Source: Escherichia phage vB_EcoM-LTH02
Reading direction: 5' to 3' (one strand)
Length of the DNA stretch: 64,000 nucleotides
Sequence record: PP430346
The notes beneath the pieces are model-generated. The model searched no databases and was not told where the DNA came from. It worked only from the letters and a program-made list of their open reading frames with translations. Below are positions 24,347 through 63,772 of the stretch, one piece after another. The position numbers and the translations under genes are program-made. Position 1 is the first letter of the stretch. Each line of letters begins with the position of its first letter.

Positions 24347-24676
24347 TTAATCTGCCAACCTTAAATTAAAATTAACACCAAATTTTTCACATACTTCCAA
24401 CATAAACTCAAGAGAGACATTACCAGTGAGGTTGATTATGTTGGATACACGAGCCTGAGAGATACCACAAATTTTAGCAACTTGCTCTTGAGAAAGACCT
24501 CTGGATTTAATCTCTCTCTTAAAACGATGTGCAACGAAGTCTCTCATTTCGTCTACATCCATTGGACAAATATAACTCTCCATTTCAGCCTCTCTGTCAG
24601 CCTCCCAATCATCTTGTGGAGCATAAGGGTCAAAAACCTCATTCATCTTTCTTCTTCCGTTTTCGTGAAGTGTCAA
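24347..24676 (-). CDS. HTH (XRE/Cro-C1 type) DNA-binding protein; possible alternative start at 24646
   Basis: LSQEQVAKICGISQARVSNIINLTGNVSLEFMLEVCEKFGVNFNL is a classic helix-turn-helix XRE signature. Confidence 0.55.
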   Translation of the reverse strand: MTLHENGRRKMNEVFDPYAPQDDWEADREAEMESYICPMDVDEMRDFVAHRFKREIKSRGLSQEQVAKICGISQARVSNIINLTGNVSLEFMLEVCEKFGVNFNLRLAD

Positions 24677-32515: not shown

Positions 32516-32575
32516 TTTTACTCCCTCTAAAATCATTAACCTCATACATTACTGCAAAAAATTATAAAAAGCAAG

Positions 32576-32605
32576 TTGACAATGTACTTGACAAGGTGTT
32601 AATCT
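32576..32605 (+). promoter_or_regulatory. Candidate promoter in divergent intergenic region
   Basis: TTGACA (32576-32581), 18-nt spacer, TAATCT; second TTGACA at 32588. Weak -10. Confidence 0.3.
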
Positions 32606-32772
32606 TTGCGAAGTGGGTTTTTACTTAAAAGGTTACTTAACAGTTTAACTATACAGATACTTTAAAACTCTTAAAAGATTATTTAATAGCTTTTAAAAAG
32701 CTTTAAAGTATAACGTATAGAATACGTTAAGATAAGAGATTAAAACTTAATAGTTACTTAAAAGAGGCTTAC

Positions 32773-61354: not shown

Positions 61355-62140
61355 ATGGGTATTGTAAAAATTATCAATGGTGATATCTTTGACGCATTTG
61401 ATAAAGGTAAGTTTGACATTATTGGTCATGGTTGCAACTGTATGAATTTCATGGGTGCAGGTATTGCAGCAACTATTTCTAAGCGTTATCCAAAAGTGTA
61501 TGATACTGATACAGAAGTTTACCTGTTTGCAGGTGGCATTCGTCACAAACCCTGTGAAAATTTACTAGGTAATTTCTCTGTAGCACGTTTAAAACAAGGT
61601 CGTATAGCTAACCTTTACACCCAACTTCATACTGGTAAAGATGCCCGATACAGTGCTTTAGAGTCATCTTTGAAGCAGCTTAACAGATACTGTGAAGTTA
61701 ATCAGTTGAAGAAAGTTGGCTTACCTATGATTGGTGCAGGTATTGGTGGGTTGGACCCTCAAGCCGTCACAGTTATCATCAATCAGGTTATGAAGAGTGT
61801 AGATGTCTATCTATATGTCTATGAAGGAGAAATGTACCACAAGTTACGCTCAGGTTGGAAGAACTACTGTGAACCAGAATACTTTGCAGGTGTAGTTGTG
61901 TTCACAGATGATACAGTTACCCTCTTCAGACGAAGAAAAGGTAAGATACATCAAAGTAACCCTCCGGTTGAGAAGATGTCTCTGAGTAACGCTCTAGTTA
62001 CCCACCTGTCGAAGAGCAATCACAGGATAGCCGTAACATTTGGCAGTGATGCAGATACATATATCTATGCAAGAACTGATGAGGATATCGAGACGGTCTT
62101 CTCTTCACCGGAAGTTACCTTCTTAGACGCAAAGAACTAA
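61355..62140 (+). CDS. Macro-domain protein (ADP-ribose binding/hydrolase fold)
   Basis: GDIFDAFDKGKFDIIGHGCNCMNFMGAGIAATI parallels the macro GDIT...IVNAAN...GGGVxGAI segment; LPMIGAGIGGLDP parallels the AFPAISTGIYGYP ribose-binding loop. Confidence 0.5.
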   Translation: MGIVKIINGDIFDAFDKGKFDIIGHGCNCMNFMGAGIAATISKRYPKVYDTDTEVYLFAGGIRHKPCENLLGNFSVARLKQGRIANLYTQLHTGKDARYSALESSLKQLNRYCEVNQLKKVGLPMIGAGIGGLDPQAVTVIINQVMKSVDVYLYVYEGEMYHKLRSGWKNYCEPEYFAGVVVFTDDTVTLFRRRKGKIHQSNPPVEKMSLSNALVTHLSKSNHRIAVTFGSDADTYIYARTDEDIETVFSSPEVTFLDAKN

Positions 62141-62210
62141 GAAACTCTGTATAATATTCACAATAGACCAAGCCTTTCTTATCTGGTAAATTTTTCAGGT
62201 AAGGAGGGCT

Positions 62211-62410
62211 TTTTCATTTCAGGATTGTGCAGGTAGAGTTCTGGACAGAAATCTGTAGAGAAAATTTTGAACTCCAAAGAGAAAATTCATTTTCAAACTG
62301 TGCAGGTAATCTCCAAAGAGCTTTTTCATTTTCAAAACGTGCAGACCCCGCTCAGGTCGGGCAAGAAAAATCATTTTAGAATTGTGCAGGTAGGTGGGTG
62401 CAGGTGGGGA
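62211..62410. repeat. Iteron-like direct repeats (4 clear + 1 degenerate copy, 40-45 bp spacing)
   Basis: TTTTCATTTCAGGATTGTGCAGGTA (62211), ATTCATTTTCAAACTGTGCAGGTA (62285), TTTTCATTTTCAAAACGTGCAGAC (62323), AAATCATTTTAGAATTGTGCAGGTA (62368), degenerate copy near 62250; followed by GTGGGTGCAGGTGGGG. Confidence 0.6.
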
Positions 62411-62569
62411 TGTCGCCATTTCTCACAAGGCTACCACATCTGAAAAGAAAAGTCAACAGAAAAATTTGTAGCGGGTTGAAAAATAATTCTTGATTGTAGT
62501 TCTGTTTTGTGGTAGTCGCGTGCGCCCGTTTCATTACAGTTTTTTGCAAAAATATTTTTAAAATTCCTA

Positions 62570-62598
62570 TTGACTCTCTGACTATGGTTATTTAGTAT
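62570..62598 (+). promoter_or_regulatory. Candidate sigma70-like promoter for the 3' small-gene array
   Basis: TTGACT (62570-62575), 17-nt spacer, TAGTAT (62593-62598); 5'-UTR hairpin GGGGAGGGAATGAACTTCCCC at 62609-62629. Confidence 0.45.
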
Positions 62599-62664
62599 TT
62601 GCATCAACGGGGAGGGAATGAACTTCCCCACTAAACAAAATCCTTAAACTAGGAGATTCAAAAA

Positions 62665-62871
62665 ATGATTTACAGCCGTGAATTGATGGTCACAACTAAC
62701 GTTAACACAAAGGTAAAACGTTTTTATATGCAAGTATGCGGCGCATGGCGTAGAATATCAGAATCTGACTATTGCAACTATGTAGAAACGGCTATTAATT
62801 CTAATTGCTATCTTACAAGAAACACTAAGAAATTTACAAGGCAGACAGCGATTTACTACTACGACAAATAA
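62665..62871 (+). CDS. Small protein 1 of 3' array
   Basis: 68-aa ORF with GGAGA RBS; stop codon forms the start of the downstream palindrome. Confidence 0.4.
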   Translation: MIYSRELMVTTNVNTKVKRFYMQVCGAWRRISESDYCNYVETAINSNCYLTRNTKKFTRQTAIYYYDK

Positions 62872-62957
62872 AGTACTTTACAGGGGGCTTAAAAGCTGAT
62901 ATCTTAAGCCCCAGATAAAGAGCTTTACCACTAAATCCTAAACTGGAGAACTTAAAA
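62869..62957 (+). promoter_or_regulatory. Repeated leader cassette A: palindrome TAAAGTACTTTA - GC hairpin - TAAAGAGCTTTA - RBS
   Basis: Palindrome 62869-62880; stem GGGGCTTAA/TTAAGCCCC (62884-62912); second half-palindrome 62916-62927; GGAGA then ATG at 62958. Confidence 0.6.
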
Positions 62958-63341
62958 ATGGCATACCGTGCACCTAAATTCATCAACAAAGACAACTTTC
63001 GCAACGCACTGGAGAAGTCACTTGATGAAAATTTTAAAGGTAACATTATCGTTGTTCACGCATTCAATTTTAAGTATGATGTAAACGGGAATAGAATCAA
63101 CCATTACACAGCAACCATGTTAGATGGTACGCTATCAAGTGAAAAAGCTGTACTGAATGCACTTGCAGGACGTGGTAAAAACCTGATAAGATGCGATAAG
63201 AGACGTTATCAGGGTGGCGCATATGGTTATGATGATGCTGTTTATCATCTTGAAAATATGGGCTATTCAGTGGAAAAAGCTGGAGCATCACAAATCATCG
63301 GCAGCGATGGTTATGTAACTATCTTCAAAATTAACAAATAA
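62958..63341 (+). CDS. Small protein 2 of 3' array
   Basis: 127-aa ORF between cassettes A and B. Confidence 0.45.
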   Translation: MAYRAPKFINKDNFRNALEKSLDENFKGNIIVVHAFNFKYDVNGNRINHYTATMLDGTLSSEKAVLNALAGRGKNLIRCDKRRYQGGAYGYDDAVYHLENMGYSVEKAGASQIIGSDGYVTIFKINK

Positions 63342-63426
63342 AGTACTTTACAAGGGGCTTATAGTTCGATAAAGTAAGCCCCAGATAAAGAGCTTTACCA
63401 CTAAATCCTAAATTGGAGATTCAAAA
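63339..63426 (+). promoter_or_regulatory. Repeated leader cassette B (same architecture, different hairpin loop)
   Basis: TAAAGTACTTTA 63339-63350; stem GGGGCTTA/TAAGCCCC with loop TAGTTCGATAAAG; TAAAGAGCTTTA 63386-63397; ATG 63427. Confidence 0.6.
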
Positions 63427-63684: not shown

Positions 63685-63772
63685 TAAAGTACTTTACAAG
63701 GGGCTTAAAAGCTGATATCTTAAGCCCCAGATAAAGAGCTTTACCACTAAATCCTAAACTGGAGATTCAAAA
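63685..63772 (+). promoter_or_regulatory. Repeated leader cassette C
   Basis: Same palindromes and a hairpin (63700-63728) identical to cassette A; ATG 63773. Confidence 0.6.

Follow-up and report, generated by a model that had tools for sequence, protein, structure and literature searches.

Arrays in which one regulator occupies several sites are known from a number of phages, among them the p4 sites of phi29, the asymmetric and orientation-dependent 'stoperators' of mycobacteriophage L5 and the asymmetric C1 operators of P1. In this work, we analyzed an array of direct repeats in the genome of Escherichia phage vB_EcoM-LTH02 (record PP430346), in a stretch of 64,000 nucleotides that we call the window. 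The array is housed in a 524-bp non-coding gap (62141-62664) between a macro-domain gene and an array of small genes, which is where a preliminary description of this DNA, made from the sequence alone, had placed it. The window starts inside the portal gene, matching position 2046 of the complete relative Bas63, and around the array it shares 92-96% identity with many Felixounavirus genomes of Escherichia and Salmonella phages; judged by sequence, the phage is a Felixounavirus (Felix O1-like, subfamily Ounavirinae). The repeats were unannotated in every record inspected, including that of wV8, which annotates nine other repeat families, and literature searches found no description of them. The direct repeats reported in the Felix O1 paper, of at least 24 bp, all lie elsewhere (PMC3185647). 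The array is a real and deeply conserved cis element, apparently undescribed. It belongs with the iteron and operator arrays, among which it is unusual in its long period, its bipartite core, its alternating A/T tracts and the lack of an adjacent initiator or regulator gene.

The repeat units and their conservation

Searched without mismatches, the pattern TCATTTY-N6-GTGCAG was found four times on the + strand within 180 bp (62214, 62287, 62326 and 62371) and nowhere else on either strand of the 64 kb, while TGTGCAGGTA occurs exactly at three sites only (62226, 62299 and 62383). Each unit (Table 1) is built of five T or A, TCATTT, seven variable bases and GTGCA, usually then GGTA, and T-type and A-type units alternate along the array. 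Of the 118 units found at 31 distinct loci, 116 have GTG at a distance of 13 nt from TCA, and the seven bases between the half-sites vary without 3-base periodicity. A fixed 13-nt distance around an aperiodic variable middle marks a two-part recognition site and is not what codons would give. A unit profile, for which 54 distinct units were taken from 31 loci with those of the window among them, recovered the four copies with E = 6.5e-10 to 2.7e-7, the next best match having E = 0.25, and the motif has no further copy in the remaining 23 kb of Bas63.

Five copies, one of them degenerate, had been described at uniform intervals of 40-45 bp. The start-to-start spacings in the window are in fact 73, 39 and 45 bp, and the copies found comprise four exact units and a relic. 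The relic, whose 5' flank is retained and whose core is lost, falls below the detection of the unit profile; it was accepted as the remains of a fifth unit because Erwinia phage M7 keeps an intact unit (B) at that position, in a tandem spacing of 37-37-39 versus 73-39 in the window. The array is not CRISPR-like: its inter-unit stretches measure 12-46 bp and are conserved between genera, and its units are not identical. Nor are the units of the sigma-70 promoter class, as the promoter scan found no sigma-70 hexamer pair within them and the motif is present at one locus only.

Comparison with relatives, which the preliminary description had recommended, located the array 3' of the macro-domain gene in each of the four Ounavirinae genera that were sampled. 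Its spacing is 73-39-45 in Felixounavirus and Suspvirus, 75-41-45 in Mooglevirus, 77-39-45 in ESh21 and, in the Erwinia phages of Kolesnikvirus, 74-39 in phiEa21-4 and 37-37-39 in M7. The 11 fixed bases of the four copies are the same at 44 of 44 positions between the window phage and mistaenkt, ESh21, Moogle and Sf17. Against Moogle, the 25-nt units are 86% identical and the inter-unit spacers 65%, whereas the adjacent macro-domain gene reaches 76% at codon positions 1 and 2 and 55% at position 3. The units being more identical than the flanking gene, the non-coding array is under stronger constraint than its coding neighbor, and on these alignments it is among the best conserved stretches examined, coding or non-coding.

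Copies at the same position share 0.72-1.0 identity across genera, with a lone exception at 0.60 (Moogle copy 4, which is similar to copy 2), and different copies inside one genome share 0.28-0.68 outside the fixed core. Since same-position copies are the closest, the copies are not homogenised and each position keeps its own character. The kept order, T/A alternation and spacing agree with a structured complex whose positions each count. Without exception, the array has the macro-gene terminator on its left and a conserved sigma-70 promoter on its right. The macro-domain gene is the upstream neighbor at every locus with a neighbor examined, in all four genera, and the synteny is kept in wV8, Moogle, mistaenkt, ESh21, phiEa21-4, Sf17 and L128; a seemingly different upstream gene in phages L128 and L028 proved to be a divergent allele of the macro-domain gene.

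A two-unit pattern was further scanned over 2.9 million viral contigs, metagenome contigs and one genome per bacterial species. Among the viral contigs, 31 of 32 loci belonged to Ounavirinae, and in the metagenome contigs true homologues were found in Ounavirinae-like contigs only. All 16 matches in the bacterial genomes were unrelated tandem repeats, as was every other match outside Ounavirinae-like contigs, and a scan with a single-unit pattern returned mostly chance matches.

A candidate protein-binding array and its surroundings

We favor an array of protein-binding DNA sites because of the rigid two-part motif, the A/T tracts, the kept order and spacing, the uniqueness of the motif, its position between a terminator and a promoter, and the absence of an RNA fold. 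That the units bind a protein for some function appears reasonably probable from the sequence comparisons; the further proposal that their role is transcriptional control or insulation at a module boundary is tentative. In this model, the array would be a cis-acting element of four functional sites and one relic, each site being asymmetric and bipartite (a W5 tract, TCATTT, seven variable bases and GTGCA(GGTA)). A sequence-specific DNA-binding protein would occupy the sites and build a multi-protomer complex between the terminator and the small-gene promoter. Such a complex might block read-through from the upstream operon, or it might modulate the sigma-70 promoter 180-350 bp downstream via looping or bending. 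We infer from the kind of conservation observed that the constraint acts on double-stranded DNA, through protein binding, and that it serves a regulatory role.

Insertion data from Bas63 bear on this model. 'Gene 96' of Bas63 is a - strand open reading frame (ORF) at 64142-64297 that covers units 2 and 3 entirely, unit 1 for the most part and unit 4 in its first bases. In the available part of the PhageMaP knockout screen data its scores were +0.24 to +0.98, like those of neighboring non-essential genes. PhageMaP barcodes are inserted at single cut sites; one insertion spares the other units, and all that the result shows is therefore that the array is no indivisible essential element. Tolerance of insertions suits a modulatory element.

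Several observations weigh against the model. No binding protein was identified, and the sole recognizable candidate, an Xre-type helix-turn-helix regulator encoded at 24347-24676 on the - strand and present in 260 records of Felixounavirus, Suspvirus and Mooglevirus, was rejected, as the Erwinia phages have the array and tblastn (E <= 1e-3) found no homologue of this protein in them; the syntenic thymidylate synthase-to-ligase block of phiEa21-4 likewise has no annotated Xre-type regulator. In Bas63 the Xre-type gene is essential, its disruption being strongly deleterious (scores of about -1.2 in the available screen data). In addition, ~180 bp separate the nearest unit from the -35 element downstream of it, a long distance for a classical operator, and the spacings of 37-45 bp are not multiples of the helical repeat. 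To our knowledge, the motif fits no promoter or host-factor consensus. The comparison covered the sites of DnaA, IHF, Fis, CRP, Fur, NtrC/sigma-54, MarA and PhoB, as well as the UP element, the T4 MotA box and the T4 late promoter, and no site agreed with every unit; a lead to DnaA was rejected, the Erwinia-phage units matching a relaxed box at 8/9 and the Felix O1-like units at 6/9. Besides, a BLAST search of 5,426 E. coli genomes with the consensus unit gave no meaningful match, so the motif is not a copy of a host site and has no counterpart there. Finally, reverse transcription-polymerase chain reaction (RT-PCR) in Felix O1 detected RNA over 'ORF14', which covers the array, with a maximum at 25 min versus 5 min for both flanking ORFs (PMC3185647). 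This RT-PCR was probably not strand-specific; the RNA having been detected, a role at the RNA level keeps some probability.

Table 1. Features of the repeat array and its surroundings in the window
Feature	Position	Strand	Sequence or evidence
Repeat unit 1 (T-type)	62209..62235	+	TTTTT-TCATTTC-AGGATT-GTGCAGGTA
Repeat unit 2 (A-type)	62282..62308	+	AAAAT-TCATTTT-CAAACT-GTGCAGGTA
Repeat unit 3 (T-type)	62321..62347	+	TTTTT-TCATTTT-CAAAAC-GTGCAG, then ACC replacing GTA
Repeat unit 4 (A-type)	62366..62392	+	AAAAA-TCATTTT-AGAATT-GTGCAGGTA
Relic of a fifth unit	~62240..62266	+	TCTGGACAGAAATCTGTAGAGAAAATT; 5' flank retained, core lost
Macro-domain ('phosphatase') gene	61355..62140	+	Pfam Macro PF01661, E = 5e-7; phrog_335 'phosphatase'
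Intrinsic terminator of the macro-domain gene	62170..62220	+	Terminator scan: 17-pair stem, hairpin 62170-62211 then TTTTTCATTT
Variable segment	62394..62454	.	G-rich GGTGGGTGCAGGTGGGG in the window's lineage; C-rich CCCCTCTCCCCC...CCCC tract in most relatives
AT-rich block, highly conserved	62447..62497	+	AAAAGTCAA.AGAAAAATTTGTAGCGG.TTGAAAAATAATTCTTGATT; alignments of three genera
GC-rich block GGTAGTCGCGTGCGCCCG (= GTAGTCGCGTGCGCCCG)	62511..62528	+	Moderately conserved in Felixounavirus, Suspvirus and Mooglevirus; absent from Erwinia phages
UP-like AT tract, sigma-70-type promoter and leader hairpin GGGGAGGGAATGAACTTCCCC	62546..62629	+	Promoter scan
First gene of the small-gene array	62665..62871	+	68 aa; phrog_5293, a PHROG of no assigned function

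Upstream, the array abuts the macro-gene terminator, whose T-tract doubles as the T5 of repeat unit 1. The stem shows compensatory changes in L128 and L028, in arms paired by hand only, and the terminator sequence is identical to Felix O1 terminator t13, with a dG (folding free energy) of -21.8 kcal/mol (PMC3185647). A TATAAT hexamer at 62151-62156, just past the macro-gene stop codon, is kept as TAnnAT in Felixounavirus and Suspvirus; no good -35 was seen upstream of it when the sequence was read by eye. A transcript from this hexamer would consist of little more than the terminator hairpin, and may be a tiny RNA or the hexamer a chance occurrence.

Downstream, both the G-rich element (62390-62409) and the GC-rich segment noted in the preliminary description are present. 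The G-rich element is specific to the window's lineage, most relatives being C-rich at that place. The variable segment is 28-48% identical to relatives, compared with 86-97% for the units of the non-Erwinia phages. The C-rich tract lies right of unit 4 (2807-2837 of the wV8 locus L001, with equivalents at L002, L003, L004, L006, L128 and other loci), and its carriers are wV8-like Felixounavirus, Suspvirus and Mooglevirus, the Erwinia phages having a weaker tract. On the - strand it forms a canonical four-run G-quadruplex motif, for example GGGGAGAGGGGGAGTAAGAGGGGGAGAGGGG, according to a G-quadruplex scan, which found no canonical motif on either strand of the window; in the window's lineage an unrelated segment, with GGTGGGTGCAGGTGGGG on the + strand, has taken the place of the tract. 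The C-rich tract may be a Rho-loading site, a G-quadruplex or an i-motif. The conserved AT-rich block contains a shortened unit-like element (a 62% copy in repeat family D1). The sigma-70 promoter of the first small gene consists of TTGACT (62570-62575), a 17-bp spacer and TAGTAT (62593-62598), and TTGAC and TA.TAT are retained in 15 of 15 aligned sequences from four genera.

Searches with ten flanking proteins returned only the Macro domain and PHROGs without assigned function, and no initiator-like or toxin-like gene; a transfer RNA (tRNA) scan of the window found zero tRNAs. Each downstream small gene is preceded by a repeated cassette (62869-62927, 63341-63400 and 63693-63721), made of a promoter-like TTTACA, a 17-bp spacer, TAnnnT overlapping a GGGGCTTA...TAAGCCCC hairpin, and a conserved ribosome-binding site. 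The cassettes resemble the mobile promoter-stem-loop cassettes of T4-type phages. They correspond to the 57-bp repeats recorded in the Felix O1 paper (PMC3185647). Outside the window, the + strand small-gene array of Bas63 meets a - strand block in 1.66 kb without annotated gene (Bas63 70493-72154; L154 6494-8155).

Alternative explanations

The alternative that survives best is a replication origin at the array, perhaps one among several, with the units as iterons for a phage or host initiator. The DNA would open at the AT-rich stretches 62447-62497 and 62533-62600, possibly aided by the adjacent strong promoter. The array does have at least three clustered direct repeats of one motif in non-coding DNA (four exact units and a relic); the same-strand units form a unique repeat cluster within their large non-coding gap, and the layout is held across four genera. 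AT-rich tracts follow it, of which 62533-62600 is within the least stable 0.3% of the window's 40-60-bp stretches, but this tract is also the UP element and promoter. Tolerance of single insertions in the available Bas63 data speaks against an essential origin, while being compatible with redundant origins or with a replication that turns recombination-driven, as that of T4 does. On the other side, the cumulative GC skew, proposed beforehand as a check, has its maximum at ~22 kb and its minimum at ~33 kb and rises steadily through 62 kb with no inflection, although this evidence is weak because phage skew largely follows the direction of transcription. No initiator-like gene was found among the flanking proteins, and the spacing of 37-45 bp compares with ~22 bp in classical iterons. 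T7 origins use promoters, not iterons. The replisome of these phages is T7-like (PMC3185647). Furthermore, the least stable DNA of the window lies at 32546-32772, a more classical origin candidate. All in all, an origin at the array is weakened by these results and unlikely.

The stretch 32546-32772 deserves a description of its own. It is a divergent intergenic region between the gene of a 909-aa DNA polymerase (- strand) and + strand genes. The least stable DNA of the window is found in it, as are direct repeats of 23 nt and, at 32657-32711, an AT-rich palindrome whose arms measure 27 nt. The region coincides with the minimum of the cumulative GC skew. From these features it would be a better candidate for an origin, or for an early divergent promoter, than the array.

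Alternatively, the constraint might act on RNA. A read-through or middle-phase transcript would then carry four or five unstructured copies of UCAUUU-N7-GUGCA and would serve as a decoy or sponge by which a nuclease or RNA-binding protein is bound or titrated, like ToxI-like arrays or the pseudo-ToxI of phage phiTE. Type III antitoxin repeats have a period of 34-45 nt. The M7 array, clean and head-to-tail with a 37-37-39-nt period, falls in this range; outside the core, however, the units are 28-68% identical and one has decayed in Felix O1-like phages. Their lack of homogenisation sets the units apart from known antitoxin arrays, in which the units are near-identical. All units lie on the strand that is transcribed in the flanking genes, and the RNA detected over the stretch in Felix O1 is timed unlike that of either neighbor (PMC3185647). 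The array nevertheless begins within the T-tract of a strong terminator, and no conserved promoter lies ahead of it. An Rfam scan of 61900-62900 with E-values up to 10 gave chance-level matches only. RNAalifold on 11 diverse sequences of ~340 nt found no conserved fold (-3.1 kcal/mol for the + strand and -1.2 for the - strand), and single-sequence fold z-scores of +1.09 and +0.52 indicate that neither strand folds better than shuffled controls; the array is not detectable as a structured RNA. The flanking proteins include no toxin, and the set of one genome per bacterial species yielded no similar array. As far as the available screen data go, the array is dispensable in laboratory hosts, as would be expected of an accessory anti-defence element; gene 96 nonetheless scored about +0.6 to +1.0 in the two defence-screen sheets available, and genes 95, 96 and 98 are nowhere mentioned in the main text of the Bas63 screen. 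We regard this explanation as doubtful, and rank it below an origin.

A broader version holds that the array is a subfamily-specific decoy or sponge, either as DNA or as an unstructured middle-phase RNA, that titrates a host factor. Its target would be a factor common to Escherichia, Salmonella, Citrobacter and Erwinia, for example a defence nuclease, a toxin or a nucleic-acid-binding regulator. If true, the array would be neither origin nor operator but a non-coding element of counter-defence or host takeover, and both its stronger conservation than the coding neighbors and its dispensability in laboratory strains would be explained. We consider such a decoy improbable.

The statement of the preliminary description that the region has no credible ORF was borne out. 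A small repeat-containing protein might be encoded by a - strand ORF (62219-62419), which would read ...YLHNSKMIF...HVLKMKK...YLHSLKMNF..., or by a + strand ORF (62227-62379). Two of the three - strand frames are open across the core motif, the 39- and 45-bp spacings hold frame in Felixounavirus, Suspvirus and ESh21, and RNA across the stretch was detected by RT-PCR in Felix O1 (PMC3185647). However, the frame does not survive the 41-bp spacing of Moogleviruses, the 43 bp of wV8, the 37 bp of the Erwinia phages or the 73-77 bp from unit 1 to unit 2, and the array is non-coding because spacings of 37, 39, 41, 43 and 45 bp shift every reading frame. In the core, the bases that would be third codon positions never vary, in contrast to a contiguous stretch of 7 bases, and neither start codons nor N-termini are conserved. 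Database ORFs over the array occupy mixed strands and frames (Bas63 gp96/gp97, Moogle gp115, mistaenkt gp18, ESh21 URY12613, wV8 gp013 and the old Felix O1 ORF14), the annotated strand being - in Bas63 gp96/97, Moogle gp115 and mistaenkt gp18 and + in wV8 gp013. They are probably annotation artefacts from the stop-free repeat core, and a protein-coding function is very improbable.

Finally, a packaging recognition site or terminal-repeat boundary is hardly credible and was rejected, because the termini of the close relative UAB_Phi87, mapped by Bal31 digestion and run-off sequencing (PMC4837284), lie ~21 kb away from the array, on its downstream side. The direct terminal repeats of Felixounavirus are short, with 613, 581 and 608 bp determined by PhageTerm or run-off sequencing (PMC6454146, PMC8303462, PMC4837284), and are indeed close in length to the 524-bp gap. 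In the UAB_Phi87 record (JN225449), however, the first and last 542 bp are identical (L009 1-542, L010 1463-2004), and this repeat corresponds to Bas63 ~85185-85726, in the tRNA cluster, versus 64064-64535 for the array; insertions within the Bas63 array were, moreover, tolerated in the available screen data. This evidence concerns the ends of UAB_Phi87 and its relatives rather than the window phage's own. The independent draft contigs of the Salmonella Felixounaviruses FSL SP-010 (KC139526.1, position 2) and FSL SP-107 (KC139638.1, position 41613) end at about window 62630-62665, at the promoter and ribosome-binding region of the first small gene, but these ends fall on the repeated cassettes of the small-gene array, which break assemblies; most likely they are assembly breaks at repeated promoter/ribosome-binding cassettes, not physical ends. 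Record start positions were discarded as a clue, as they follow depositor conventions (rIIA or large terminase start; circular records). As to UAB_Phi87 itself, the record has 87,603 bp with 542-bp repeats versus 87,669 bp and a 608-bp terminal repeat in the paper (PMC4837284), and its terminal repeat takes in the 3' end of one gene as well as three tRNA genes, two for Gln and one for Leu.

Comparison with described repeat systems

Salmonella typing has its classic phages in Felix O1 and its relatives, which are also widely used in biocontrol and therapy. The Felix O1 genome paper states explicitly that the timing of transcription and the start sites of replication are not known. The identity of a protein binding the array would open early-gene control or replication initiation in the subfamily to study, and would tell phage engineers if the 62.1-62.7 kb gap suits insertions. 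Among the options first proposed for the repeats, packaging is rejected and an origin weakened, and a protein-binding array, whether regulatory or not, fits the anatomy and conservation best.

The array resembles the origin iterons of lambdoid phages, iteron plasmids and lactococcal phages in its four to five same-strand repeats, its non-coding location, the AT-rich DNA that follows and the conservation of the copies. It differs from them in its period, 37-45 bp as against ~20-24 bp, in having no initiator gene in or beside it, in its distance from the replication genes and the GC-skew minimum, and in its tolerance of single insertions. With the F sopC and R1 parC centromeres it shares tandem direct repeats of ~40 bp with a protein-binding core, the sopC units being 43 bp long. 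In contrast to those centromeres, it comprises four or five copies only, no partition genes were noted in the annotation, and a virulent phage has no obvious need of partition. As in ToxI, CptI, TenpI and the phiTE pseudo-ToxI, its units of ~37-45 nt follow one another head to tail on the transcribed strand and include A-rich stretches, and the array is not needed in laboratory hosts; unlike those systems, it has diverged units and lacks an adjacent toxin gene, a promoter in front, an Rfam match and a predicted fold. The sites of the phi29 p4, L5 stoperator and P1 C1 arrays overlap promoters or scatter genome-wide, and their binders are known, whereas the array described here forms one block 180-350 bp upstream of the next promoter. 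Notwithstanding, it shares with these regulator arrays asymmetric sites, flanks of A/T tracts, an orientation with transcription and a location in a regulatory gap.

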